A DNA stretch of 64,000 nt from a virus. The stretch spans positions 43,395 through 107,394 of IMG/VR virus record IMGVR_UViG_3300045988_179616, one strand, 5' to 3'. Below the pieces are notes generated by a model, which was not told the DNA's origin, did not search any database, and saw only the letters and a program-made list of their open reading frames with translations. Shown in pieces: positions 66 through 63,793 of this stretch. How positions within the stretch are numbered: position 1 is the first letter of the stretch; each line of letters opens with the position of its first letter. Position numbers and translations under genes: made by a program.

Positions 66-217
66 TTTATTCTTCAGAAATTTTGTTTAATTCTTTTCTC
101 ACATTTTACTTTTTTTATTTGACTTCACCATTTTTTGTGTAAAAAGCAACAGGGGCAAGTTCATAGGCACGAGGATTAGCCCAACCATTTTCTTTTTGGA
201 AAAATAGTGCCGAAGTG

Positions 218-3984: not shown

Positions 3985-4974
3985 ATGCCACTACAACCGA
4001 ATATACCAAAACAAAAACGCTCATTTCTTACAAAAGAATGCCCGCGTTGTAAGCAACAACAACTAGAAGAAGATTTCACAAAAACTCACTCGATTTTCTA
4101 CCCAGATGGAGTACTTCCCATCTGTAATGATTGTATTACTCATTACCTCAAACAGAATGAGTTTAGTTGGCGCGCAGTTGATAAAGTCTGTCAATGGGCC
4201 GATATCCCCTTCATTGTGAAAGAGTTTGAGAGGCTAAGAGATTTGAATTCTGATGATACTGTTTGGGGCGTTTATGCAAAAGTCTTTGCAACAGAAGAAT
4301 ATAAGAATTTAGGATGGGACAGTTATAACTCCCAATATCTCGAACTAAAAAAAGTTGGACTTATTGAGGATGAGATTCCATTAGTAAAGGAAAAGCATTT
4401 TGAGGAATTGCGCCGACGCTGGGGAGGCAACTATGATGATGATGAACTCTATTACTTAGAGGACCTCTATAAAGGCTTGCTTCTTTCTCAAAACGTATCT
4501 GGCGCGCTAGCGATTGACCAAGCTCAAAAGCTCTGTAAGCTTTCGTTAGAAATAGATAAACGAATCCGTGCCGGCGACAAAGACGTCGATAAATTCCTCT
4601 CATCTTATGATAAGATTGTGAAGACAGCAGATTTTACTCCTAAGTCAGTCAAAAACGCAACCGACTTTGATAACATTGGAGAACTGATGCTCTGGCTCGA
4701 AAAGCGCGGGCACCAAAACAAATTCTATGATAATACTACTAGAGATGTTATCGATGAGACTTTGAAAAATATTGAAGCTTGGAATCAGCGTTTATATATA
4801 AATGAAGGTGGTCTTGGAGATGAGGTGACCGCGCGACTTCAGGCTCTTCAAAATGTCGCTCAAACAGATAACTTTTATGACCTCCAAGCAGACAACTTTG
4901 ATGCGGATGTCTATGAGGCCGAAGCTTTCAAAGAGGATGAAAGTGAGGAGTTCGATGCGGGAGGAACCCTCTAA
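3985..4974 (+). CDS. Zn-ribbon protein (329 aa); possible small terminase or packaging accessory subunit (positional inference only)
   Basis: N-terminal sequence is CPRCKQQQLEEDFTKTHSIFYPDGVLPICNDC. Its stop overlaps the TerL start (TAATG). Acidic C-terminus. Confidence 0.6.
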   Translation: MPLQPNIPKQKRSFLTKECPRCKQQQLEEDFTKTHSIFYPDGVLPICNDCITHYLKQNEFSWRAVDKVCQWADIPFIVKEFERLRDLNSDDTVWGVYAKVFATEEYKNLGWDSYNSQYLELKKVGLIEDEIPLVKEKHFEELRRRWGGNYDDDELYYLEDLYKGLLLSQNVSGALAIDQAQKLCKLSLEIDKRIRAGDKDVDKFLSSYDKIVKTADFTPKSVKNATDFDNIGELMLWLEKRGHQNKFYDNTTRDVIDETLKNIEAWNQRLYINEGGLGDEVTARLQALQNVAQTDNFYDLQADNFDADVYEAEAFKEDESEEFDAGGTL

Positions 4975-6761
4975 TGGCTGTAATTACTTTGCGCGACCCT
5001 ACTTCAATTTATAACTCCCAAAATCGTCTTTTTAGAGAAGGGATCGAATTAGAAAAAGGAGTTGTTATAACTGAGGAATTCTTAGAGCGAAATGAGAAGT
5101 TTCTGGAAGAGGAGCTTCAACTTTATACAGTTTATCCTGACATCTATTTAGATACAATAAAACCCATTGACTCCCAATTTGATTTGTTTCCTTATCAACG
5201 CTTATTTCTGCGCGCGCTTATGCGTTATAATCAAATCTATATTACCGCAACTCGCGCAGCTTCAAAGTCATTTCTAAGCGTCCTTGGGCTCTATCTTCAG
5301 TGTGTCTTTATCCCTAATCATAGATGCTCGATTGTCGCCCCTGTCAAGACGCAAGGCGTAAAGATTATGAGACAGAAAGTAGAAGAAATCATAAAGATTT
5401 GGCCTTTATTAGAGAAAGAGCTTGAAGTTTTTATGGGGAAGCCTCATATGAACTTTTCAAAAGATGTGGCCGAGCTTTACTTCAAGAATGGCTCCAAATT
5501 TACTTGCGAGGGCGCTACGGACTCATCACGTGGTCTCAGACTTCACTCAACATTCCTCGACGAGGTACGTGATGCTGATGGAGATATTATTTCCGAAGTT
5601 ATACTTCCTCAACTAAATGTTTCTCGGCGTGACGCAAATGGTCTAGTAAATCCTTATGAAGTTTGTAACCAGCAAGTTATTGCTGGAACTTCAGCAGGTA
5701 TGAAGTCTTCTTATGCTTATTCACTTCTAATAGAAACAATGATACAAGCAATAATTGACCCAAAAAGAGCCTTTGTTATGGGTCTAGACTATCGTATTCC
5801 TGCCCAGCATGGCTTGGTTGATAAAAAACACGTTGAGAAATTGAGGATGTCTTCAGCCTATAACGAAATGACATTCGCATCAGAGTTCATGGGGACTTGG
5901 AGTGGAGGAAGCGAGGAATCTTGGTTTGATTTTGAGAAACTTTCTAAATATCGAACAAAGAAAAATCCAGAATTTACTCAGAAATTTAGAAACCAGCAGA
6001 ATTGTTTCTACTTTATCAGTGTAGACGTAGGACGCCTACAAGACTCAACAATTGCTTGTATCTTTCGAGAAAACATCAAGAATGACAAATACTACTCAAC
6101 TCTCGTCAATATTGAGGTTCTTGGAAGACAAGCAGAAACAAAAACCTTTACACAACAAGCAATTGATTTGAAGCTTCTGATTGAGAGATATAATCCTCGA
6201 GAAGTTTTGATCGACTGCAATGGTTTAGGTTTAGGCCTCGCAGATGAGATGATAAAAACTCATACAGATGCGCGAGGTCGTGAGCTTCCTGCATACGGCT
6301 TTTTCAATAACGATGATTACAAAAAAATCCAACCTAAAGACTCTATTCCTATTTTATATTCTATGAAAGCAAATGGCCCCCTAAAATCAAAAATCAATGG
6401 TAATGCCTATTCTCGTTTGAGTGGCGGATTGGTTCGGTTCTTGATTAGTGAGCAGGAGGCGCGCAATGCTCTTCTTGGAACGAAAGTTGGTCAAAAAATG
6501 ACAATGCGCGAGCGAGTCCAACGGCTACTTCCTCATGAGCAGACAACAAAACTTTTTGAAGAAATGGGTAATCTTCGCGTCAAAAATGTAGGTATAGATA
6601 TAGTCCTTGAAGCGATAAATAAACGGTTCCATGATGACCGCTATTATGCTTTTGCTTATGGGTTATGGCGTATCAAAGAGATTGAAGAGGCTCAAATGAA
6701 AAAACAACGAAGACGGGGCGCTGGAAAACGCAACCTAATATTCTTTACGGGAGGGGCATAA
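4974..6761 (+). CDS. terL: Terminase large subunit
   Basis: 595 aa. Walker-A-like ITATRAASKSF, Walker-B-like STFLDEVRD, and C-terminal nuclease-like acidic motifs (FISVDVGR, LIDCNGLG). Canonical position upstream of the portal gene. Confidence 0.85.
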   Translation: MAVITLRDPTSIYNSQNRLFREGIELEKGVVITEEFLERNEKFLEEELQLYTVYPDIYLDTIKPIDSQFDLFPYQRLFLRALMRYNQIYITATRAASKSFLSVLGLYLQCVFIPNHRCSIVAPVKTQGVKIMRQKVEEIIKIWPLLEKELEVFMGKPHMNFSKDVAELYFKNGSKFTCEGATDSSRGLRLHSTFLDEVRDADGDIISEVILPQLNVSRRDANGLVNPYEVCNQQVIAGTSAGMKSSYAYSLLIETMIQAIIDPKRAFVMGLDYRIPAQHGLVDKKHVEKLRMSSAYNEMTFASEFMGTWSGGSEESWFDFEKLSKYRTKKNPEFTQKFRNQQNCFYFISVDVGRLQDSTIACIFRENIKNDKYYSTLVNIEVLGRQAETKTFTQQAIDLKLLIERYNPREVLIDCNGLGLGLADEMIKTHTDARGRELPAYGFFNNDDYKKIQPKDSIPILYSMKANGPLKSKINGNAYSRLSGGLVRFLISEQEARNALLGTKVGQKMTMRERVQRLLPHEQTTKLFEEMGNLRVKNVGIDIVLEAINKRFHDDRYYAFAYGLWRIKEIEEAQMKKQRRRGAGKRNLIFFTGGA

Positions 6762-10217: not shown

Positions 10218-11270
10218 ATGACTATTAAAGAGCTACAAGAAATTGCCCTTCATTGCGCTAAGGGTACTGTTCCTGCCACCTATGCTAATCAGAATGTAGA
10301 TATGGATTCTGCTTTCCTAGATGGTCTAAAGGAGCTAGCTGGTTCCGTAAACCAGTTTATGAAGAATCGTTATGATATTTATGATATCGTAATTAAGACT
10401 GCCGATGAGGTTATGCCTAAGAAGGTAATTGATGCTATCGGTATGTTCGCTGAGGTTCAGATTGTTCCTCAAAGTCAGAAGGCTATCTTTAAGCGTCGTC
10501 TAGGCAAGATGCGCGCCAAGAAGTTCCTAACTCAGGTTGGTCTATCTGGTGTGTATGAGACCTTCCGTCTAGATAGTGATACCTTTGAGCTAGCTGGCCA
10601 TGCTGTCGGTGGAGGTGCCACTATCGACTTTGAGCGTATGCTAGATGGTGCCGAGACCATGGCTGAGGTTATGCAGGTTCTAACTGATGGTCTAACTGAT
10701 GCCGTATTCTATGAGGTCCATAAGGCTCTTCGCGCTGCCGTAAATGCTTCTGCTCGTCCCGATGCTAATAAGGTAGTTTCTAACACCTTTGAGACTGATA
10801 AGATGGTAAAGCTAATCAATACTGTTCGTGCTTATGGTAACGGTGTTGTAATTTTTGCCCCTCCCGAGTTTGTAGGTGCTATGGGTGCTGACGCCATTGT
10901 AAATGGTATTGCTAATAATACTAATGGTATTTATCATCCTCAGGATATTGACTCAATTCATAACACTGGGTATATCAATATTTTCCGTGGAGCCCCTGTT
11001 GTTCAGATTCCTCAGTCCTTTATTGATGAAACCAATACTAAAACTTGGATTGACCCTCAGCTAGCTTATGTTCTACCCACCGGTGGAGAGAAGGTAGTAA
11101 AGGTTGTTCTAGAAGGCAATACTCAAATCAATGACTTCAAGAATCGTGATAATTCTCTAGAAGTCTATGCTTATAAAAAGATGGGTTGCGCTATTCTAGC
11201 TCATCATAACTGGGGTATTTATCAGAATACGGGGATTACCCAGACTTTTGAGAATCCTTATAATTTTTAA
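10218..11270 (+). CDS. Major capsid protein (putative)
   Basis: 350 aa with a strong AAGGAGG RBS and the expression-biased codon class. Followed by a strong terminator. Position is canonical. Confidence 0.7.
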   Translation: MTIKELQEIALHCAKGTVPATYANQNVDMDSAFLDGLKELAGSVNQFMKNRYDIYDIVIKTADEVMPKKVIDAIGMFAEVQIVPQSQKAIFKRRLGKMRAKKFLTQVGLSGVYETFRLDSDTFELAGHAVGGGATIDFERMLDGAETMAEVMQVLTDGLTDAVFYEVHKALRAAVNASARPDANKVVSNTFETDKMVKLINTVRAYGNGVVIFAPPEFVGAMGADAIVNGIANNTNGIYHPQDIDSIHNTGYINIFRGAPVVQIPQSFIDETNTKTWIDPQLAYVLPTGGEKVVKVVLEGNTQINDFKNRDNSLEVYAYKKMGCAILAHHNWGIYQNTGITQTFENPYNF

Positions 11271-11391: not shown

Positions 11392-11865
11392 ATGGAGAAG
11401 ATTAGAGTAGTTAGTAAGCATCAAGGTCCTATCAGCGTGAACATTCCCGACTTGCGTTTCAAGCGCGAGTGGCCCAATAAGGGTGCCAGCATTCCTATCG
11501 AAAGAGAGACTCTGGAAGAAATGATGTATGATAGTGGCTTTAAGTATATGATTGATACTGGGATGCTTTATATTGAAGACTTAGAGGTAAAGAAGGAGCT
11601 AGGCCTTGAACCTGAAGACGCTACCGAACCTGTTAATATTATTGTTTTGAGCGATAATGATATGAAGCGAATGATGACTGCCATGCCACAGTTTGAGTTT
11701 GATGCTAAGCTAAAGACCTTGAACTATGAGCAGATGTTAGCGTTGGCTGATTTTGCTATCAAAAATGAACTAGGAGATTTCGGTAAGTGTGATGCTATAA
11801 AAAAGGCTTGTGGGAAAGATATTCTAACTGCTATTAAGTTGAATAGAGAGGATAAGGAGGGCTAA
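11392..11865 (+). CDS. Hypothetical head-module protein (157 aa)
   Basis: ORF with an AAAGGAG RBS, between the capsid and connector genes. Confidence 0.5.
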   Translation: MEKIRVVSKHQGPISVNIPDLRFKREWPNKGASIPIERETLEEMMYDSGFKYMIDTGMLYIEDLEVKKELGLEPEDATEPVNIIVLSDNDMKRMMTAMPQFEFDAKLKTLNYEQMLALADFAIKNELGDFGKCDAIKKACGKDILTAIKLNREDKEG

Positions 11866-41427: not shown

Positions 41428-43686
41428 TTATCCACATCTACTCCAACCACAAGATTTACATATGACGCATCCGCCCTCTTGTATAAGCTCAGAACCGCAC
41501 CCTGGACATTTTGCGCCATTATCGGTCTCTGGATTGGATGAGGGTATGCTCTCAGAGCCTAGTGTTTGAGAATTGGAATTTGCCAAGGCAATAATTGAAT
41601 TTCCTTTTTCAATTCTTTCTTTCATCTCCTTCCACATTTCCATAAGAGCATTGCCTACTGCCATAGGACAACAGGCGCCTTTTGAGGTATCATGCTTTGT
41701 GGCAGTCCGGGAGGCATAACTTGGACAGACGCCAGTGCTTTGAAGCTGGTCAGCAATATCTTCAATTTTTACACCGCCACGACAAGCTAGAGAAATCATT
41801 CGAGAAAGACCAACCATAAAGTTAGCACATCCGCCAGCACTTCCTTTATTTAGATAAATCTCCATCAAGTCACCAGTATGCGGGTCAAACCAGGCAGTAC
41901 AATGGAGAGAACCACAACCAGTAGTTAAACGTCGTTTCATTCCAATTAGATTATCAGAACAGCTAATGATTTCTCCACGAGATAGACCTTTTTCCTCTTC
42001 TTTTTCTTGAGAGTTGTTAGTTGTTAGAATCCCAAGTCGCTTACAGCCATTTCTAAAAACAGTAATACCCTTTAGTCTTTCTGTCCAGGCATTTAGATAA
42101 ATCTCTTCAACATCCTTAATAGTTGCTTCTTCTGGAAGATTTACGGTGCTACTAATAGAAGCGTCAATGTGTTTTTGCCATACTCCTTGCATTAGCACTC
42201 TATTTAGAGGAGAAATTGTCGATGAAGTACAAAACCAATTAGGAAGTTCAGTTTCATCTTTTATTCCATGTTCATCCATATATTCTTTTACAATTGGAGT
42301 ATATACCTTATAATATTCATCATGACCATGAAGAGATTCAGTTTTTCGAGTATAGGAATTAGCAAAAATTGGTTCAATCCCTCCACTAATTCCTAACATT
42401 GTAGAAATAGTACCAGTCGGCGCGATTGTCAGCAATTGACTATTACGAAGACCATAAGCCTCTATCGCTTCTCTTGTACTTTCGCAAGTATTATTTTTTA
42501 GGAACTCACTTTTTTGGACACAAGATTTATAATTGTTATAAGAGCCAGCGTGTCCGGCAAGAAAAGCTGAAGTATATAAAGCCTGGTCGGCCATTACTAA
42601 GCCAATTTCTTCACATAACTGTCGGGCCTGTTCTGAATCATAAGGAAGCTCCATTTTTATAAGCATATCAGCCAGCCCCATAATTCCAAGACCTATTTGA
42701 CGCCAATCTGCTACTGATTGCCTTTGTTCTTCTAAGGGATGCAAAGAAAGTCCTTCTTCCAGTACTTCGTTTAGATAGATGACACCATTAGCTACCGTTT
42801 CACTAAAATCATCAAAATCAAACTCTTTATCTTTTACAAAAGCAGAGAGATTTATACTTGACAAGAGACAAGACCCTCCCGCAGGAAGAGGCTCCTCCGC
42901 GCAGGGGTTGACTCCTGCATATTCAAAAGTATCGTCAAACTCAAGTAGATTATATTCTTTAATATTATCCCAGAATAGAATTCCAGGTTCTCCCCAATCC
43001 CAATTATTTTTACATAGTTTTTCAAAAATATCCCTAGCCTTAGCACTTTTTGTAATGGTCTCTCCAGTTTCTGGACGAGTAAAAGACATGACCCAATTCT
43101 CGTCATTGATTACGGCTTCCATAAAATCATCAGTTACTCGAACAGAAATGTTTGCTTTAGTAACAGCATCCGGAGAAGTCTTTGCATCAATAAAGTCCAA
43201 AAGGTCAGGATGATGACAGTCCAAACTAATCATCAATGCTCCGCGCCGGCCAGCTTGACCAATCTCTTCAGTCGTTTGACTATATCCTTGCATAAAACTT
43301 ACTGCGCCGGTAGTTTGTTCTGCTTGATTATGAACCTTTGCGCCTGCGGGAGCTAATTTAGAAAGGTCAATTCCACAACCACCACCATAAGAATAGGTTC
43401 TAGCTAGTTTCTTACGACTTTCAAAAATAGATTCAATATTATCTTCTGGAGGAGTAATAACATAACAATTACTATAAGTTACTCGTGTATCAGTGATTCC
43501 CCGATTGCTAAGAATTCGTCCGCCGGGAATGAATTTTTTTTCAATAATTAGTTCTTTTATTGCTTCGTTATTTCCACTAACTCTATCTAGCCATTCGTCA
43601 AAAGTTTCGTTATTCTTTTTATACTTTCGATTCCATATATCTATACCCAAGCTATTATCTTTTCCTAGCCATTGTTCTACTGTCAT
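41428..43686 (-). CDS. nrdJ: Class II (adenosylcobalamin-dependent) ribonucleotide reductase
   Basis: 752 aa, no ATP cone. Motifs: SNCYV, GGGCGIDLS, GRRGALMISL, NPCAEEPL (active-site Cys loop), IAPTGTIS. C-terminal CPGCG...CVICKSCGWSRCG zinc ribbon. Confidence 0.8.
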   Translation of the reverse strand: MTVEQWLGKDNSLGIDIWNRKYKKNNETFDEWLDRVSGNNEAIKELIIEKKFIPGGRILSNRGITDTRVTYSNCYVITPPEDNIESIFESRKKLARTYSYGGGCGIDLSKLAPAGAKVHNQAEQTTGAVSFMQGYSQTTEEIGQAGRRGALMISLDCHHPDLLDFIDAKTSPDAVTKANISVRVTDDFMEAVINDENWVMSFTRPETGETITKSAKARDIFEKLCKNNWDWGEPGILFWDNIKEYNLLEFDDTFEYAGVNPCAEEPLPAGGSCLLSSINLSAFVKDKEFDFDDFSETVANGVIYLNEVLEEGLSLHPLEEQRQSVADWRQIGLGIMGLADMLIKMELPYDSEQARQLCEEIGLVMADQALYTSAFLAGHAGSYNNYKSCVQKSEFLKNNTCESTREAIEAYGLRNSQLLTIAPTGTISTMLGISGGIEPIFANSYTRKTESLHGHDEYYKVYTPIVKEYMDEHGIKDETELPNWFCTSSTISPLNRVLMQGVWQKHIDASISSTVNLPEEATIKDVEEIYLNAWTERLKGITVFRNGCKRLGILTTNNSQEKEEEKGLSRGEIISCSDNLIGMKRRLTTGCGSLHCTAWFDPHTGDLMEIYLNKGSAGGCANFMVGLSRMISLACRGGVKIEDIADQLQSTGVCPSYASRTATKHDTSKGACCPMAVGNALMEMWKEMKERIEKGNSIIALANSNSQTLGSESIPSSNPETDNGAKCPGCGSELIQEGGCVICKSCGWSRCG

Positions 43687-56376: not shown

Positions 56377-58719
56377 TTAGAAATTTTGGATTTTTATTAC
56401 CTTTGAGTTTTCCCCTAATTTTAGAGTTTTGACTCCTTGCGTACCACGACTTAGTACAGGAATTTCTTCAACTTTCACTCGAATTTGGGTAGTAGAAGAT
56501 ACAACTAGAATATCACTAGAATCAATAAGCGGTAGAAAGTCGCAAAGATTATCTGCTCTTTGAATCTTTACTCCTTTGGTTGCTCGTCCGGTAATTTTGA
56601 ATTCGTTTATATCAGTCCGCTTTGAATATCCATCTTCACTCACAGAAAGAATTTCTCTTGTTTCTTTGGGAATAACTCGTCCAAAAACAACCTTATCTCC
56701 CTCATTTAGCTTGATGCCTACAACCCCTCGAGCCACTCTACCAATAGGTCTAATATCTTTAGTTTCGATAATAATAAAGTTTCCTTCCTCAGTAAGAATA
56801 CCGACTCTCTCATCTTTCAAAATAAGAATAGAAGCAATTAAATCACCATCATCCAACTTTAGAGCTTGAACACCAGTGTTCCTTCGTAAATTATACTCAG
56901 AAAGCGCGGACTTCTTTAAAATTCCATTCTTTGTAAGAAAAAGAATATTTGAAGACTCTGTGTCTTTAGAAAGAATTGTAGCTGATTTTATTTCATCGTC
57001 TCCATTGATAGGTAGAAGTGAATTTAGATACTGCTTTTCTCCAATATTGAATTCTCCCATCTTCAAATGATAAAAGGTCCCGCGCCGTGTGAAAAAGAGA
57101 ACTTCATCTGTGTTGTTTCCAATTAGAGTATCAACTACAAATTCACCTTTATCTAATTTAAATTTTGACCCTACACCATTTCTTCGTTGAGAATAAAGTG
57201 TAGAAGTTTCGCTAACAAATACAGCTCCCTCATTTGTGAAAGAAAGAGACAGTTGTTTTTGCTCGATTGTTTCTTCATCATTTGAAATATTCAAAATTTT
57301 GGTACGACGTTCATCACCAAATTTTTCAGCAACCTCGCGCAATCCTTTTTCAATTTCTTTTTTGAGGAGAATTTCATCACCTAAAATGGCTTCAATTCTT
57401 TCTTTTTCAGTTTCAAGATTGGATTTTTCAGTTTCTAACTTTGTAATATCTAAATGAGTTAAACGAGAAAGCTTTAAGTCTAGAATAGCCTTTGCTTGAA
57501 TTTCATCAATATTCAGTAGGCGCTGAAGGCCAATTGAGGCGTTTTTAGCATCTGCGCATTTTTTGATGGTTTTTACCACTTCATCAATCATTGAAATAGC
57601 TTTCATCAAGCCCTCAATAATATGAAGTCGTGCAAGAATCTTCCTTCGATCAAATTGAAAGCCATTTATATATACGCTTTTTTCATGGTCAAGATGGGAC
57701 TGAAGAAGTTCCTTCCAGCCGAATACTTTTGGAAATCTTCCATCTTCCAACATTGTCATATTTATAGTATAATGATTTTGAAGCGAAGTATTCTTATAAA
57801 GATACTTTAGAACCTTTTCTGGTGAAGCATTTTTGGTTAGATAAATTTTAAGATTACATTGATTACCTGTTAAGTCATTAAATCTCTCAATTCCAGGGTT
57901 CTCATCACCATTTAAAATGTCTTCTAATTGTTGACAAATAGTATTGGTATAAACACCAAAAGGAATTTCAGATACAACAAAGCACTTATCTTTGTTTATA
58001 TATTCAATTACACTTCTTAATTTACAAGCAGAACCGGTTCCATTCTTTAGAGAATTTTTTACTTCTTCTGAATTTAGAAGAATCGCGCCAGTGGCAAAAT
58101 CGGGTAAAATTAAGATTTCTTCTACTGGTATATCTGGATTCCATAACAACTTAATAAGGACCTCATTAAGTTCTTTAATATTAAACTGAGGAATTGAACT
58201 AGCCATTCCAGTAGCAATGCCCGATGATCCATTTACTAAATTATAAAAACCCTTACTTGGTAAAACTGAAGGAAATTGAAGATTGTCAGCATAGTTATCT
58301 CTCCATTCTTCAATTACTTCTTTTTGAATGTCAGCAAAAAGATAATTACAGGTTTCTGCTAATCTTGTTGAAGTATATCTTTCACTCGCCCAACTACCAG
58401 AACTCATAAGAGTGCCACTATTACCTTTTACTTCAGTGAGAGGATAGCGCATACAAAAACTCTCTCCTGCGCGCATCATTATCCCTACACAAGAAGAATC
58501 ACCATGAATATAGAAATCCTTCATTGCATCACCCATAGGAGCATTAGTTTTCTCATATGGTTTATCATGGGTATATTTATTCCGCCACATTGAGTAAAAG
58601 ATTTGCCGAGCACTTGGCTTTAGCATATCACGAGAATCAACTAGGGCTCGAGATTGTAGGACTGCTCCACTATATTGAATAAATGAATCTTTTATTACGG
58701 GAGTCATCTGTATTTCCAT
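56377..58719 (-). CDS. Type IIA topoisomerase subunit A (GyrA/ParC-like)
   Basis: 780 aa. Active-site tyrosine context WASERYTSTRL (compare AAMRYTEARL). C-terminal beta-pinwheel-like repeats. Confidence 0.85.
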   Translation of the reverse strand: MEIQMTPVIKDSFIQYSGAVLQSRALVDSRDMLKPSARQIFYSMWRNKYTHDKPYEKTNAPMGDAMKDFYIHGDSSCVGIMMRAGESFCMRYPLTEVKGNSGTLMSSGSWASERYTSTRLAETCNYLFADIQKEVIEEWRDNYADNLQFPSVLPSKGFYNLVNGSSGIATGMASSIPQFNIKELNEVLIKLLWNPDIPVEEILILPDFATGAILLNSEEVKNSLKNGTGSACKLRSVIEYINKDKCFVVSEIPFGVYTNTICQQLEDILNGDENPGIERFNDLTGNQCNLKIYLTKNASPEKVLKYLYKNTSLQNHYTINMTMLEDGRFPKVFGWKELLQSHLDHEKSVYINGFQFDRRKILARLHIIEGLMKAISMIDEVVKTIKKCADAKNASIGLQRLLNIDEIQAKAILDLKLSRLTHLDITKLETEKSNLETEKERIEAILGDEILLKKEIEKGLREVAEKFGDERRTKILNISNDEETIEQKQLSLSFTNEGAVFVSETSTLYSQRRNGVGSKFKLDKGEFVVDTLIGNNTDEVLFFTRRGTFYHLKMGEFNIGEKQYLNSLLPINGDDEIKSATILSKDTESSNILFLTKNGILKKSALSEYNLRRNTGVQALKLDDGDLIASILILKDERVGILTEEGNFIIIETKDIRPIGRVARGVVGIKLNEGDKVVFGRVIPKETREILSVSEDGYSKRTDINEFKITGRATKGVKIQRADNLCDFLPLIDSSDILVVSSTTQIRVKVEEIPVLSRGTQGVKTLKLGENSKVIKIQNF

Positions 58720-58752
58720 TTATTTATACTCCTTTCTTTTCATTATATAAAT

Positions 58753-58792
58753 ATTATAATAAAAAAAAGAGAGGAAATCAAATTTCCTCTCT
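58753..58792 (-). promoter_or_regulatory. Composite terminator-promoter cassette A (hairpin loop supplies the -35 TTGATT; the T-tract is the spacer; TATAAT)
   Basis: Minus strand reads AGAGAGGAAATTTGATTTCCTCTCTTTTTTTTATTATAAT. Hairpin at 58768-58792, -35 at 58776-58781, -10 at 58753-58758. Confidence 0.6.
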
Positions 58793-58798
58793 CTAAAA

Positions 58799-59191
58799 TT
58801 ATTCACGAATAAGTGAAAAATCTACATTTTCAAAAATAAAGTTAGTTCGTGGTTCAACCTCTTTACCCATGAGAGAATAAAGTAAAAAGAAACTTTCTTT
58901 ATCTGGCTTTAGTACATCAAGTCGTTGAAACTCTGGAGTGAACATTGATTCGTGAGCTTCCTGAGCCTCAAGCGCGCCGAGACCCTTCGCGCGATGAACT
59001 TCACCTTTTACTTTTCCTTCAGACTTAGCTTTTTCAAAGTCTTCATCAGTGAAGTAATAGCTTCTCTTCTTTCCTTGCTCAACAATAAAGAGTGGAGACC
59101 GAAGCCAGCAAAGACGTCCTTCTTCAATAAATTGTGGGGCTACTTTTAATAGACAACTCATAATCAAAAGTCCAATATGATAACCATCTGA
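58799..59191 (-). CDS. Type IIA topoisomerase subunit B (GyrB/ParE-like), exon 2
   Basis: Begins SDGYHIGLLIM, which completes the Toprim DxDxDGxHI motif. C-terminal tail domain (RAKGLGA, PxxRxL-like). Confidence 0.8.
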   Translation of the reverse strand, partial: SDGYHIGLLIMSCLLKVAPQFIEEGRLCWLRSPLFIVEQGKKRSYYFTDEDFEKAKSEGKVKGEVHRAKGLGALEAQEAHESMFTPEFQRLDVLKPDKESFFLLYSLMGKEVEPRTNFIFENVDFSLIRE

Positions 59192-59514
59192 CATTTATAC
59201 CCTCAGTTTCCTGATATTTTACACAATTCTTTTTCATCACCTTCTCCATAAAGGTAGATTTTTATGGAACCTAACTCTAAAGAATTGAGGGATTAGACTA
59301 TACCATCTTCAAAATTTTGAAGTCCCTATTATAGTCGTTGAGCGTCCATCCGTTCTGGATGTTTCGTTGCGTTTGATTGCCCAATCCTTTTCGATTTTAC
59401 CTTACCGTTTCCGTTACTAAACGCCATTTATATATCCCTATATAAACTTGGTTGAAAAGGCTCTAAGGGGTTCCCCGCAATTTAAGGGATTTTACGCGGA
59501 CTCAACGTTGGTTA
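59192..59514 (-). ncRNA. Group I self-splicing intron (323 nt, no ORF)
   Basis: The 5' exon ends in U. P1 pairs GCGGAU with the internal guide GUCCGC (59496-59501), with a G-U wobble at the splice site. The terminal nucleotide is G at 59192. P4 is GCGUUU/AAACGC, P6 is CAUCC/GGAUG, P7 is GACUAU (59331-36) / AUAGUC (59296-301), and P8 is the hairpin CUUCAAAAUUUUGAAG (59307-22). Confidence 0.8.
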
Positions 59515-60981
59515 ATCCGCATCGCTACAGATACCTAATTTTCCATAACGAAGTTTTTTTGCATCATATTTCCCAGGAATAATATTCATTGCACTTAAAA
59601 GAAGTTTAACTTCTTCATTCTGAAAAATCTTTTCATCATCATTTGAAAGACAATTTATTATTTTACCTCGAATGGCCATTAATCCTGTATGTTCTACATC
59701 TCTAGCCTGTGCCATTCCATTTAGCGCACTATCTCCTTCACATACCAGGAGGATTGAATCCTGTCCTAAGAACTCCGCATCCTTCAACTTATCACTTGCA
59801 AAAACTTTTTTCCGTTGATTCTTTTCAACTTCTTTACCAGCTTCAAGAACTTGACGGCGCGCTTTTTCAGCTACTTGCTCAGCCTTAGCCTCCTTTGTAA
59901 GAAGTTCCATTACCTTTTCAAATTCATCAGAATGCTTTCGTTCAAACTCCTCTAACATTTGCCCCGTAGCGCGCTGACAAAGCCCCCGAAGTACGGGATT
60001 ATTTACTTTTGTCTTTGTTTGGTCGCTAAAGCTCGGCTGAGGAACTTTACAGCTAACAGCATAGAATAGTCCTTTTCGAAGTATATCAGGAGAAACTTCA
60101 CCTTTGATTTTTTTCTTGAAGTAATTAGTTAGCGCAGTTTTGACTCCTGTTAGACTTGTTCCGCCAGCAGTATTTTCAAGACCATTAGTAAAAACGTGCC
60201 ATTCCTCATTTCTACTACTAGTCCAACACATTACAATTTCAGCCTCAACATCATTTTCTTTCATTATAATATGAAGAGGAGTTTTGTTTAGAGGCTTGTT
60301 AGCACAAGTTTTCATAAAGTCTAAAAGCCCATTTTTAGCTTGATATTGAACTGTTTCTTCCTCTCCCTTTTTGTGGTTATTCAAAATAAAAGTCAAAAAG
60401 GGATAGAGATATGACCAATTCCGGCACATTTCTTTTATGTCGCAAAATTTGAGGTCAATTGGTTCAAGATTATAGACTTCTTGAGATGGGGTAAAATCAA
60501 CAAAAGTTCCTCGATTATTTGAGCTACCAGTTGTAAGTGAAACTTTTTGTCCTTCTTTTAGGACTAATTCAGACTGTTTTCCATCTCTCATTGATACCGC
60601 GCGGAAGGTATCACTCGACAAGGCTGTCCCTTTTGCCCCAATGCCATTGAGCCCTCCTACATTTTGGTAAATTTTATTATTGAATTTTCCTCCACTATGC
60701 GGAAGGGTATAAATTGCTTCAAGTGCATCGACGCCATCTTCTCGCGGACCGAAAGGACATCCCCTTCCATTGTCTAGGACCGTTATTCGGTTTCCATCAT
60801 AAAGGTCAACAACAATACGATTGCAGAATCCCATTGTAGCTTCGTCTATACTATTTGTAATGATTTCACGCACACATTGAAGTACTCCTTGGTTGTCTGC
60901 GCTTCCCATATACATTGCAACCCTAGAGCGAACGGCGTCTTTGAAACTCAAAGTTTCAATAGAGTTAGCATCATAACTCAA
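59515..60981 (-). CDS. Type IIA topoisomerase subunit B (GyrB/ParE-like), exon 1 (TTG start refined)
   Basis: GHKL ATPase motifs (EIITNSIDEA, GRGCPF, GGLNGIGAKG), QTKTKVNNP, and Toprim LLVCEGDSA. Ends ...ICSDAD. AGGAG lies 9 nt before the TTG at 60981. The ORF-track start at 61023 reads through the promoter. Confidence 0.8.
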
Positions 60982-61100: not shown

Positions 61101-61364
61101 TTATTCTTCCTCTACCCAAGAGAGCCAGCGCATTACCAGGTCTTTGTCACTAATATTACAAAGCCCATAAGGACAGTCCTTGTTCATTTCACAAAAACTT
61201 ACGAGACTTCCATCATAGTCCTCTGTGTCTTGACAATTATTACAAAAAGTATCCACCATCCACTTGTCATAAACCGTACCTTCAAGCGCCATTTGGTCAG
61301 ATAGAAATTCTGCCATTTCTTCCATTGAGAGATTTTTGAGTTTTTCAAAATTTGAGAGATTCAT
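61101..61364 (-). CDS. Hypothetical Cys-rich protein (87 aa)
   Basis: ORF containing CNNCQDTEDYDGSLVSFCEMNKDCPYGLC. Confidence 0.45.
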   Translation of the reverse strand: MNLSNFEKLKNLSMEEMAEFLSDQMALEGTVYDKWMVDTFCNNCQDTEDYDGSLVSFCEMNKDCPYGLCNISDKDLVMRWLSWVEEE

Positions 61365-61660
61365 TCATTCGTCTCCTTTCCAAATCTATATTCATCTTTA
61401 GTATAGGTAATTTTAGGAATATTAACCATTGGAGCAACAACTGTATAGAGTAATTCGTCAGGAATAGTTTTATCCACAATTATCTTATCAAACTTTTCTC
61501 CTCGAGTGTTTTCATAAATTCTACTTCTAAGATTAATATAAAACCATCCGCCTCGAATAGTAATATTGTTTTTATTTTTGACTATAAGACAGCCCCTAAA
61601 AAAAGAAAGCCATTTTTCAATATCGTCTGAAATAATAAGAATTTTTACAAAAAATTTCAT
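61361..61660 (-). CDS. Hypothetical protein (99 aa)
   Basis: ORF with an ATGA overlap with the downstream gene. Confidence 0.45.
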   Translation of the reverse strand: MKFFVKILIISDDIEKWLSFFRGCLIVKNKNNITIRGGWFYINLRSRIYENTRGEKFDKIIVDKTIPDELLYTVVAPMVNIPKITYTKDEYRFGKETNE

Positions 61661-61672
61661 AACACCTTATCC

Positions 61673-61948
61673 TTATCCGGCATTAAAACTTGAACAAATG
61701 ACCTGACGATTTTTCAAAGAAACAGATGCCAATCCAATACAAGTTACTTCCAAAGTTTCGATTTTATCTGTCCAGCACCATTTGAAGTATTCCCTACTTT
61801 CCTCAGACATTCCATCTTTAAAAAATAGCTTTCCACTAGGATAAACTCTTCTTGCTTCATCTTCACTTTCAGCACAAACAACAAAAGAATCATATTCATC
61901 CCAAGTAACCTTATCGGTTCTTTTTACTAAATAAAGATAGCTAACCAT
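61673..61948 (-). CDS. Hypothetical protein (91 aa)
   Basis: ORF with a GGAG RBS, directly after cassette C. Confidence 0.45.
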   Translation of the reverse strand: MVSYLYLVKRTDKVTWDEYDSFVVCAESEDEARRVYPSGKLFFKDGMSEESREYFKWCWTDKIETLEVTCIGLASVSLKNRQVICSSFNAG

Positions 61949-61966
61949 TCAAAAACTCCTTCCATC

Positions 61967-62013: not shown

Positions 62014-62745
62014 TCACCCTCCAGCTTTCATATTTAGTTGCTTTTGCGTCCCATACAAGTCGATATAGAATTTTTCTCTCTCACTCTGCTTATCTTTCGG
62101 AACCTCTTCTAAAATTTCAAAATTATAATTCCAAATTCCATTCCGCGCCATATGTGTATGAAGCGTTGAGCTGGCAACTTTTTCCATACCCAGCGCGGTC
62201 TGAATATGGGCTTGCCATCTATCCTTGAAATTGACGGTTCGGCCTATATAAGCTTCACCAGTTGGAATATAAGTAATCTTATAAATTCCTCCAATTTTTT
62301 GACCAACAACTCTTTTTATCATCTCATTTGTAGGGCGCCGAACTATACTCTCCCATATAACCTTAGGAAGAACTTCTTTATGACATAAACGGTCTTTCAT
62401 ACTATCCAGAAGTTTTATATCTTCAATATCGTTTTGTGTAAGTTGGATTTTGTAGAAGTCTTCTTTCTCGTTTAGTTCCCGTTCTCGCCGTATCGCTTCA
62501 TTTATAGCATCGCGCCGACTGCGAAAATCTTCTAACTCTCTCCTCAGATAGGAAAGTTCATTATTATAACTTCTTTGTTTCGCTTGGAATTCTTGTTGAG
62601 CGTTTTCTTCTAAATTTTTGTATTTTTCTTCTAAAGCTTTTCGATATACCTTATCAGTATTGGTTTTTAGCTTTTGAATTTTTCTTCGTTGTTTTAGTAA
62701 AAGGAAAATACATCCTAAAACCAATAAAACTAAAACTACTATCAT
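62014..62745 (-). CDS. GIY-YIG nuclease domain protein with N-terminal transmembrane anchor and coiled coil
   Basis: MIVVLVLLVLGCIFLLLKQRRK (hydrophobic helix plus basic stop-transfer). About 90 aa of charged heptads. GGIYKITYIPTGEAYIGRTVNFKDRWQAH...N...E (GIY-YIG core). Confidence 0.65.
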   Translation of the reverse strand: MIVVLVLLVLGCIFLLLKQRRKIQKLKTNTDKVYRKALEEKYKNLEENAQQEFQAKQRSYNNELSYLRRELEDFRSRRDAINEAIRRERELNEKEDFYKIQLTQNDIEDIKLLDSMKDRLCHKEVLPKVIWESIVRRPTNEMIKRVVGQKIGGIYKITYIPTGEAYIGRTVNFKDRWQAHIQTALGMEKVASSTLHTHMARNGIWNYNFEILEEVPKDKQSEREKFYIDLYGTQKQLNMKAGG

Positions 62746-62749
62746 CTTC

Positions 62750-63793
62750 TTACTCCCAATTAGTAATTTTTGTACGCTTCTTTCTTTGTGGTGTCATCCA
62801 TAAAACTCCATCTCGCGCACGAGTAATCCCAACATAGGATACTCTACACTCTTCGGGACTCCAAAGATTTAATCCAACGCAAGCTACGTAGTCCCATTCT
62901 AAACCTTTCGCGCTATGTACAGTCAAAACCTTTACTGTATTTTCTTCCATTTTTTTATCCAGTTCTTCTTTTTTGAGATCTCCCTGCTTGAAGCTATCAC
63001 AAGGAACCCCGTTATCAACCAGATAATCTTTGATAGTATCGACTTGCGCATTAGTCCGTGCTAATACTGCCCATTTATAATATTTTTTACTAATATTTAT
63101 CATATCTAGGATTAGTTGTTCACTATAAGGCTTCATTGCTACTGTTCCTTTAACCTGGCGTATAGCAACACTGTCATCAGTCATACTACATTTTTGAAGA
63201 GTAGATTTTGCAAAACGAAGAACGTCAGGACAACAGCGATAATTTTCATTCATAGAATAAACTTTTGCCCCAAGTTCATACTGATAACTCTTCAAAAGGT
63301 CCGGACGACTGCCTGCAAAGCCGTATATCGACTGTCGTAAATCAAAGACAATAAAATATTCTTTTGCGTGAAGCATTTCAAAAATAAATTTTAGCTGAAT
63401 TTCATTACTATCTTGCGCTTCGTCACATAAACATATATCAATATTTGGCGTACATTCTGGATGCTTTTGCATTAGATGAAAAAGTCCATCGAATTTTTCG
63501 TCGTTCATATACTTTATGGCTTCTTTTACACCATTTCTGAGTAGAAGGTGCGCGCAGTAAGAGTGGATAGTTCCAATAAATAAGTTATCATTATTATCTA
63601 CTTGAAGACGCTTTTTCATCTCTCCAGATGCCATATTTGTAAATGTAAAAGCCACTACACTTTTTCCATTTTGAATACTTTGACGGACTTTTTCGGTTAG
63701 AACTTTTGTTTTTCCCGAACCGGCACTACTACTCACAAAGATAATTGGCTCTGTTGCTTCTAATATCGTATTCTGTATATTACTTAGTTCCAA
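62750..63793 (-). CDS. Compact SF1 UvrD/PcrA-like helicase (347 aa)
   Basis: Motif I SAGSGKTK, Ia FTFTNMASGEM, II CDEAQD, III QSIYGFAG, V TVHSAKGLEWD, VI YVGITRAR. Too short to contain full 1B/2B accessory domains. Confidence 0.7.
   Translation of the reverse strand: MELSNIQNTILEATEPIIFVSSSAGSGKTKVLTEKVRQSIQNGKSVVAFTFTNMASGEMKKRLQVDNNDNLFIGTIHSYCAHLLLRNGVKEAIKYMNDEKFDGLFHLMQKHPECTPNIDICLCDEAQDSNEIQLKFIFEMLHAKEYFIVFDLRQSIYGFAGSRPDLLKSYQYELGAKVYSMNENYRCCPDVLRFAKSTLQKCSMTDDSVAIRQVKGTVAMKPYSEQLILDMINISKKYYKWAVLARTNAQVDTIKDYLVDNGVPCDSFKQGDLKKEELDKKMEENTVKVLTVHSAKGLEWDYVACVGLNLWSPEECRVSYVGITRARDGVLWMTPQRKKRTKITNWE

Follow-up and report, generated by a model that had tools for sequence, protein, structure and literature searches.

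The window analysed here is a 64,000-nucleotide (nt) stretch of viral DNA (IMG/VR record IMGVR_UViG_3300045988_179616, positions 43,395 to 107,394). On its minus strand, two open reading frames (ORFs) together make up one GyrB/ParE-like topoisomerase subunit, and they are parted by 323 nt that fall inside the DxD motif of the Toprim domain. We conclude, with a probability of roughly 0.9, that the intervening sequence is a structurally intact group I intron without an ORF of its own, that is, a mobile intron minus its mobility gene. The features of the locus and the evidence used to assign them are as follows.

59515..60981, minus strand: exon 1 of the GyrB/ParE-like topoisomerase subunit, comprising the GHKL ATPase, the transducer and the first part of Toprim (ORF list; Pfam PF00204, PF02518, PF01751)
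59192..59514, minus strand: group I intron, 323 nt, phase 0, without an endonuclease ORF (RF00028 match, intron-less homologues, covariation)
59512..59514, minus strand: in-frame stop codon TAA, intron nt 1-3 (sequence)
59192, minus strand: terminal intron G, omega G (sequence; kept in nine same-site copies and in intron A of locus L249)
58799..59191, minus strand: exon 2, the rest of Toprim and the GyrB C-terminal domain, stop codon included (Pfam PF00986, DNA_gyraseB_C)
56377..58719, minus strand: gene for the GyrA/ParC-like partner subunit, directly downstream (Pfam PF00521, E 2e-97; PF03989)

Exon 1 contains DNA_gyraseB, HATPase_c and partial Toprim matches in Pfam, and its probable start is a TTG codon at 60981-60979, 9 nt past AGGAG. 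Its last codons, ...GAT GCG GAT, end at 59515 and are followed directly by TAA. The 323-nt gap ends in ...GAGGGTATAAATG at 59192, and exon 2, whose ORF starts at 59194/59191, opens with the codons TCA GAT GGT TAT CAT. When 59515 was joined to 59191, a product of 618-619 amino acids (aa) was obtained, which reads ...GICSDAD|SDGYHIGLL... across the junction and gave a colinear tblastn alignment, over ~99% of its length and with ~30% identity, to uninterrupted phage GyrB/ParE genes. An earlier, sequence-only reading of the window had already taken the two ORFs as a single homologue broken at DAD|SDG and had proposed a comparison with intron-less relatives, and both the joining and the comparison bear it out. 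A scan of IMG/VR provided 80 related loci, and 82 loci (identified below by L numbers) were in hand for the comparison of boundaries. In 73 of the 82 (52-88% identity), the gene is uninterrupted and continues in one reading frame across the site with no indel; likewise, no indel was found across ICxDAD|SDGxHI when the joined product was compared with 73-76 uninterrupted homologues. Because 73 uninterrupted homologues lack any indel here, the insertion is exactly 59192-59514, 323 nt in phase 0, located between the codon for the second Asp of the Toprim DxD motif and that for the next Ser (Asp-Ala-Asp | Ser-Asp-Gly). One example of an intron-less insertion site reads ...GATGCTGAT|TCAGATGGTTATCAT..., and that of L012 is GATGAAGAT|AGTGATGGAAAAGCT. 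A megablast search of the locus against deposited phages gave no match and no close isolate.

Comparison with the two closest intron-bearing relatives, L197 and L010, gave a ratio of nonsynonymous to synonymous substitution (dN/dS) of 0.01-0.04 for exon 1. For exon 2, the proportion of nonsynonymous differences (pN) was 0 and that of synonymous differences (pS) 0.12-0.17, with 100% aa identity. Both exons are evidently under strong purifying selection, and the gene appears to be functional.

Structure and identification of the intron

The helices are listed below by intron nt, with window coordinates for the larger elements; nt 1 corresponds to 59514.

59496..59520, minus strand: P1, exon GCGGAU (59520-59515) with the guide GUCCGC (nt 14-19, 59501-59496), U-G at the cleavage site
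59485..59489 and 59323-59327, minus strand: P3, nt 26-30 / 188-192 (compensatory changes in 5/5 pairs, 99% of cells paired)
59368..59479, minus strand: P4, UGCGGG nt 36-41 / UC..CGCA nt 139-140 and 144-147 with an AAA bulge, enclosing P5 and its extension (covariation model)
nt 46-48 / 133-135, minus strand: P5 (covariation model)
nt 55-61 / 123-129, minus strand: P5a (compensatory changes in 7/7 pairs)
nt 63-65 / 114-116, minus strand: P5 junction helix (covariation model)
nt 69-76 / 81-88, minus strand: P5b (compensatory changes in 8/8 pairs)
nt 92-96 / 105-109, minus strand: P5c, a local hairpin containing GCGUUU (compensatory changes in 5/5 pairs)
59342..59367, minus strand: P6, nt 148-150 / 171-173, with P6a, nt 154-158 / 164-168 (alignment and covariation)
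59296..59336, minus strand: P7, nt 179-184 / 214-219, a pseudoknot with P3 that encloses the P3 3' strand and P8 (Rfam-aligned R and S elements)
nt 193-196 / 205-208, minus strand: P8, hairpin CUUCAAAAUUUUGAAG at nt 193-208 (outer pairs covary)
59200..59291, minus strand: P9 domain, P9 base nt 224-227 / 312-315, tip nt 302-304 / 309-311 with a GAAA loop
nt 228-236 / 283-291: P9.1, 9 base pairs (bp), branching from the P9 5' strand, with a further hairpin at nt 247-254 / 263-270

Covariation was measured in an alignment of 25 non-redundant homologues covering intron nt 8-236, using an explicit P3-P8 helix model of 55 pairs. Standard pairs occupied 95.6% of cells, compared with 33-44% when the partners were slid by 1-3 columns. 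Compensatory changes on both sides were found in 36 of the 55 pairs, and none of 500 shuffles reached any of the observed pairing measures. The AAA bulge of P4 is missing from some homologues. At the basal pair of P6 (nt 148/173, 59367/59342; alignment columns 146/183), the window has A.C where others have G.U; a 5' A is always accompanied by a 3' C in the six sequences that carry it (the window, L120, L091, L202, L001 and L155), and G-U is present in 12. This alternation looks like isosteric wobble covariation, which standard counting scores as unpaired.

The alignment also corrected one helix. GCGUUU/AAACGC had been put forward as P4, and it is rejected because it shows no compensatory change in the 25 homologues and its pairing, 64.8%, is at the level of the shuffles. 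The other helices named in the sequence-only reading are present: CAUCC/GGAUG (nt 154/164), GACUAU/AUAGUC (nt 179/214) and the P8 hairpin. The splice-site signals it described, a 5' exon ending in U, P1 formed by GCGGAU and GUCCGC with a U-G wobble, and a terminal G, were all recovered.

P1 is 6 bp long and places the U-G wobble at the 5' splice site, and a P10 is possible between nt 10-13 (UUGA) and the 3' exon UCAG. In L133, P1 carries a compensatory change (exon UCGGAU, guide GUCCGA). The exon end GCGGAT occurs in only 1 of 76 intron-less alleles, in which GCT, GCA and GCC are the main Ala codons; all alleles with a window-type intron have G at this synonymous position, as P1 requires. The predicted spliced junction is ...GCGGAU|UCAGAUGG... 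(GAU|UCA). There is no room for P2, with only GUAAAA between the guide sequence and P3, or for P7.1/P7.2, since the P3 3' strand (nt 188-192) abuts P8 (nt 193-208). P2, and P7.1/P7.2 between the P3 3' strand and P8, are typical of T4 td-type IA2 introns, and in these respects the window intron departs from that subgroup.

A search of 59100-59620 with RF00028 (Intron_gpI) gave a minus-strand match of 40.9 bits (E 4.5e-9), whose alignment sets the P, Q, R and S consensus elements in order. The 258-nt sibling intron of L089 scored 47.0 bits (E 4.2e-11) with the same model. The core of the window intron shares ~70-72% DNA identity over 120-160 nt with Bacillus phages AR9/PBS1, SPO1-like phages and Staphylococcus phages, and ~70% with places in Lak phages and an Enterocloster phage. 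The pattern of its two P7 strands matches at least 119 IMG/VR contigs and 48 contigs from genomes or metagenome-assembled genomes (MAGs), and nhmmer with the window intron detected 72 homologous stretches in the viral loci retrieved. As had been claimed, the insert has no homing-endonuclease ORF: no sense-strand ORF within it exceeds 32 aa. Searching the window with a profile of the intron family turned up no further copy, and the other long ORF-free stretches (1-1124 and 1936-2365) gave sub-threshold Rfam noise and no tRNAs.

Several results weigh against this identification. The curated Rfam gathering cut-off for RF00028 is 50 bits, which the score of 40.9 bits does not reach. An Rfam search of the whole window at the gathering score gave no Intron_gpI match, and in a permissive whole-window search the intron was lost to the default filters, so that the proposed Intron_gpI search succeeded in the local slice only. 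The z-score of the minimum free energy (MFE) is a modest -2.15, and P7 is invariant and hence outside the covariation test, the homologues having been retrieved by the P7 pattern. The low RF00028 score is attributable to the long P5 extension and the missing P2. Covariation, the intron-less alleles and an endonuclease-bearing sibling, described below, together settle the group I identity despite the sub-threshold score, and confirm an ORF-less intron within the Toprim DxD motif as first proposed.

Endonuclease loss, probable acquisition and proposed expression

Introns of the same family, with the same guide and at the identical site, were found in L197, L010, L175, L123, L193, L089, L133 and L249. 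L197 and L010 are close relatives; in the others, exon 1 shares only 41-50% protein identity with the window. L249 was binned with a Lachnospiraceae MAG, the sole hint of a host. L010, at 96% protein identity to the window in exon 1 and 100% in exon 2, has an intron of 1134 nt with a 281-aa ORF from nt 278 that contains two LAGLIDADG motifs (PF00961, 26.4 bits against a cut-off of 23.1; nearest solved structure 2dch, E 0.0016). In the siblings, the endonuclease ORF sits in the P9.1 loop, enclosed by P9.1, which is 10-13 bp in L010 and L175 and different yet complementary in L123 and L193.

The window intron corresponds to nt 1-282 plus nt 1094-1134 of the L010 intron with five mismatches, the 811 nt between them being missing. 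The 5' edge of the P9.1 3' strand is exactly where the deletion ends, and every helix is kept. Of the LAGLIDADG ORF, only remnants are left:

59203..59237, minus strand: LAGLIDADG gene remnants, namely the ATG (intron nt 278) at 59237-59235, which follows GAAGGUG; then the deletion junction, 59233|59232; then the final 30 nt of the gene, its TGA included, at 59232-59203

Thus the ribosome-binding site (RBS) and ATG of the endonuclease gene are retained, and the last 30 nt of its ORF are now out of frame. Across the family, the endonuclease is in the following states:

intact: L010, L175, L193
disrupted: L197 (frameshift), L123
absent: the window; L089 and L249, by a larger deletion

In L089, the 258-nt intron has a minimal P9, CCCU...[CAG-GAAA-CUG]AGGG. 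To judge from these alleles, the states found at this one site are the expected decay series of a homing endonuclease gene.

The intron lies in a mosaic block of ~2.1 kilobases (kb):

~57700..59780 (+/-75 nt), minus strand: mosaic block taking in the intron, the last third of the GyrB-like gene and ~1 kb at the start of the GyrA-like gene (sliding identity)

Identity to intron-less near relatives is 55-75% within the block and 91-97% on both sides of it. Against the intron-less L012, L006 and L003, nt identity is ~93% over nt 1-1200 of the coding sequence (CDS) and 55-70% from nt 1201 on, and high identity resumes ~1 kb into the GyrA-like gene. In the distant, intron-bearing L175 the pattern is reversed: protein identity is 43% for residues 1-400 and rises to 84-85% around the intron. 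This is what the import of an intron together with co-converted flanking exons would give, and the intron probably entered the window lineage by homing or recombination with ~1.8 kb of flanking exon sequence. Mobility is further supported by the presence of the same intron at the same site in genes of merely 41-50% protein identity. As a point on the other side, routine recombination between phages, with no part played by homing, could also have produced the mosaic block. The topoisomerase genes are immediately preceded by an indel hot spot: at ~61366-61955, the window has ~590 nt with two small ORFs (61361-61660 and 61673-61948), compared with ~8 nt in L012 and a different sequence in L006.

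An alternative history is that the ORF-less form is ancestral, no deletion having taken place in the window, and that the L010/L197 lineage later acquired the LAGLIDADG gene by invasion of the P9.1 loop. Endonuclease genes do invade intron loops independently; moreover, L089 and L249 provide independent short forms (258 nt), and the 3' remnant overlaps the P9.1 3' strand and P9, structural elements that would be present anyway. We nevertheless consider this history unlikely. The RBS and ATG (GAAGGUGAUGAA, nt 271-282) are identical to those of L010 and are followed by the last 30 nt of the ORF out of frame. Intact or decayed copies of the ORF in the distant hosts L175, L123 and L193 indicate that it is old relative to the window lineage, and the nearest relative, L197, has a frameshifted ORF that is a plausible intermediate. 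A dead gene or an assembly artefact, in which the 811-nt deletion would be a mis-assembled 1134-nt intron, would account for further results that count against an intron having lost its ORF: a 35-mer spanning the deletion junction had no exact match in IMG/VR or in JGI metagenome contigs, a 20-mer at the junction had two matches, both to unrelated sequence, and the exact 323-nt allele was found in no other assembly among the same collections. Both exons are under strong purifying selection in the intron-bearing lineage, however, no repeat flanks the junction that could cause an assembly collapse, the deletion ends at a helix boundary and leaves P9.1 intact, and independent ORF-less copies exist elsewhere; we therefore regard a pseudogene or artefact as extremely improbable. 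A genuine intron that lost its endonuclease gene by deletion is the reading we retain.

For expression of the interrupted gene, we propose that transcription would run straight through the intron and that ribosomes translating exon 1 would halt at the TAA of intron nt 1-3, which would keep them out of the ribozyme. A stop codon in frame directly past the 5' splice site is also found in T4 td and is a precedent for such a ribosome block. The RNA would fold into P1, a P4-P6 domain with a three-way P5 extension, a P3-P7-P8 core and a GAAA-capped P9, and the intron would excise itself by a two-step reaction initiated by guanosine. Joining of GAU|UCA would produce an mRNA for the 618-619 aa subunit, which would partner the GyrA-like subunit encoded just downstream. 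We infer guanosine-dependent self-splicing indirectly, from the intact helices and the purifying selection on both exons; we likewise infer what the stop codon does, and in which direction and by what mechanism the intron was acquired.

The opposite proposal is that little or no splicing occurs and that a 489-aa N-terminal and a 131-aa C-terminal protein, the latter translated from GAGGG-N5-AUG at the intron 3' end, assemble with the GyrA-like subunit in the manner of T4 gp39/gp60. The sequence-only reading had pointed to the TAA at nt 1 and to the terminal AUG preceded by GAGGG as signals by which unspliced RNA might express two halves. Both sequences are real: TAA or TGA occupies nt 1-3 in 10 of 10 copies (nine same-site copies and L249 intron A), the terminal triplet is AUG in eight of nine same-site copies, and T4 shows that a split large subunit works (PMC2988022; bioRxiv 10.1101/2022.08.31.505936). 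The role suggested for GAGGG as a Shine-Dalgarno sequence did not hold up. In P9, GAGGG forms the 3' strand, paired to CCCUC (nt 224-228), and it also overlaps the former stop codon of the endonuclease gene, so that its conservation is explained by P9 and it would be sequestered in the folded RNA. The same-site copy of L249 ends in UUG with a different spacing, and L249 intron A, a family member at another site, ends in UAG. Because GAGGG is a P9 strand and the terminal triplet varies, a dedicated restart signal at the intron 3' end is not supported, and separate translation of exon 2 seems very unlikely. The ribozyme helices are all intact and covarying, which would be unexpected were splicing dispensable; a split here would leave the acidic residues that make up a single metal site on two chains (DxD | xD); and the added N- and C-terminal tails conserved at T4-type splits are lacking (bioRxiv 10.1101/2022.08.31.505936). 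The suggested likeness to gp39/gp60 also failed on position, the gp39|gp60 split being ~46 residues upstream of the intron site. We give a two-piece enzyme as little credence as the restart signal on which it would depend, and prefer a spliced, full-length subunit.

Other mobile elements and comparison with known systems

Further insertions were observed in this gene. L075 and L076 (4465-5498) contain 1034-nt insertions with a GIY-YIG ORF at the same phosphodiester as the window intron; L078 (4468-5501) has a 1034-nt insertion with a GIY-YIG ORF 6 nt downstream of that site; and L064 (~4670-5740) has one of ~1.07 kb, also with a GIY-YIG ORF, at the KG|LG motif. By manual inspection, these three types obey the U|...G rule and have plausible guide sequences and R/S-like elements. 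Rfam gave no match on the whole loci L010, L075, L078 and L064 or on the L075 insertion alone. The three insertion types are probably introns, of T4 td type by eye. L193 carries a further insertion of 1246 nt (5381-6626) near residue 439 of the same gene. On the reverse strand of L249, intron A is a 324-nt member of the window family between residues 112|113, in the ATP-binding GGxxG|IG motif; it starts with TGA, its guide GCCGUG pairs with exon CACGGU, and it ends in UAG. Since several different insertions fall at or near the Toprim metal site, the DNA encoding that site has, on the alleles compared, been targeted again and again by mobile elements of different kinds. A bolder proposal, that DNA encoding the metal site (DxDxDG) is a shared landing site of unrelated selfish elements, namely the window-type intron with or without its LAGLIDADG gene, the two kinds of GIY-YIG-bearing probable intron at or 6 nt downstream of its site and the T4 mobA/bypass cassette, and that the stop codon and GAGGG-N5-AUG form a fail-safe giving a T4-like split enzyme, which would make the intron an intermediate between spliced and split genes, strikes us as quite improbable.

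Two other observations in the window concern sequences outside the interrupted gene. The minus-strand ORF at 62014-62745 encodes 243 aa, in which a C-terminal GIY-YIG domain (Pfam E 1.7e-7) is preceded by an N-terminal half that is hydrophobic and coiled-coil-like; the ORF is flanked by a 347-aa ORF (62750-63793) and small ORFs, and the region is present in the intron-less L012 at ~94% identity. Its product may be a free-standing homing endonuclease. On the plus strand, two structural-module ORFs (10218-11270 and 11392-11865) are separated by a 120-nt gap, where 11281-11386 matches traJ_5 of Rfam below threshold (40.2 bits against a cut-off of 50; E 0.0056); the match is probably a chance hairpin or a terminator.

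The locus has practical consequences for annotation. With gene callers, the topoisomerase subunit will come out as two truncated fragments, and the RF00028 match appears only when a slice of ~500 nt is searched, so routine scans would miss this intron family systematically; as Rfam at default settings misses the window intron, the whole family is likely to be under-annotated. Together with its relatives, the locus shows in one small natural set how a homing-endonuclease gene passes through its life cycle, intact, frameshifted and deleted in two independent ways, at a Toprim metal site that has been hit repeatedly by mobile elements and adjoins the position of the T4 translational-bypass cassette. 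The understanding of how group I introns work is unchanged by it.

T4 gene 60 is a positional parallel. Alignment of T4 gp39 plus gp60 to the joined window protein placed the 50-nt bypass gap of gene 60 after DADHDG, three codons (9 nt) downstream of the DAD|SDG site, so that the T4 mobA/gene 60 cassette targets the same Toprim metal-binding motif as the window intron. MobA always inserts within Toprim (bioRxiv 10.1101/2022.08.31.505936). The mechanisms differ: in T4, the subunit is split ~46 residues upstream and the gene 60 gap is crossed by ribosome hopping, with a free-standing HNH endonuclease and no ribozyme, whereas in the window the interruption would be removed by RNA splicing, and there are no tails and no free-standing endonuclease between the halves, but an intact ribozyme instead.

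Group I introns in conserved DNA-metabolism genes of phages, their endonucleases and the decay of these are textbook matter (PMC2988022). In the well-known mobile introns of virulent phages (T4 td with I-TevI, nrdD with I-TevII and nrdB with I-TevIII; SPO1 and SP82 DNA polymerase with I-HmuI and I-HmuII), the intron likewise interrupts a catalytic motif of a conserved DNA-metabolism gene, its ORF is looped out from a peripheral helix, its distribution among relatives is sporadic and flanking exons are exchanged (PMC2988022). The window intron differs in that its host gene is of GyrB type, the endonuclease of its siblings is a LAGLIDADG rather than a GIY-YIG or HNH enzyme, and its own ORF has been lost. 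The literature searched contained no account of an intron interrupting a topoisomerase or gyrase gene of a phage, which is weak negative evidence. The introns of AR9/PBS1, SPO1-like and Staphylococcus Twort/K-like phages resemble the window intron in the core only; they interrupt other genes, that for RNA polymerase beta being one, and have other endonucleases, and the AR9 match lies inside a CDS joined from six pieces, next to an HNH homing endonuclease. Gut jumbo (Jug) phages contain many short (~206 nt) ORF-less group I introns in essential genes, about half of which were confirmed by junction reads in metatranscriptomes (PMC12880540). They belong to a different phage group, with terL, nrdD and DNA polymerase as hosts and topoisomerase IV as an intact core gene (PMC12880540). 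As a whole, the window intron belongs to a known kind of mobile element, of which it is a well supported but rather ordinary case.

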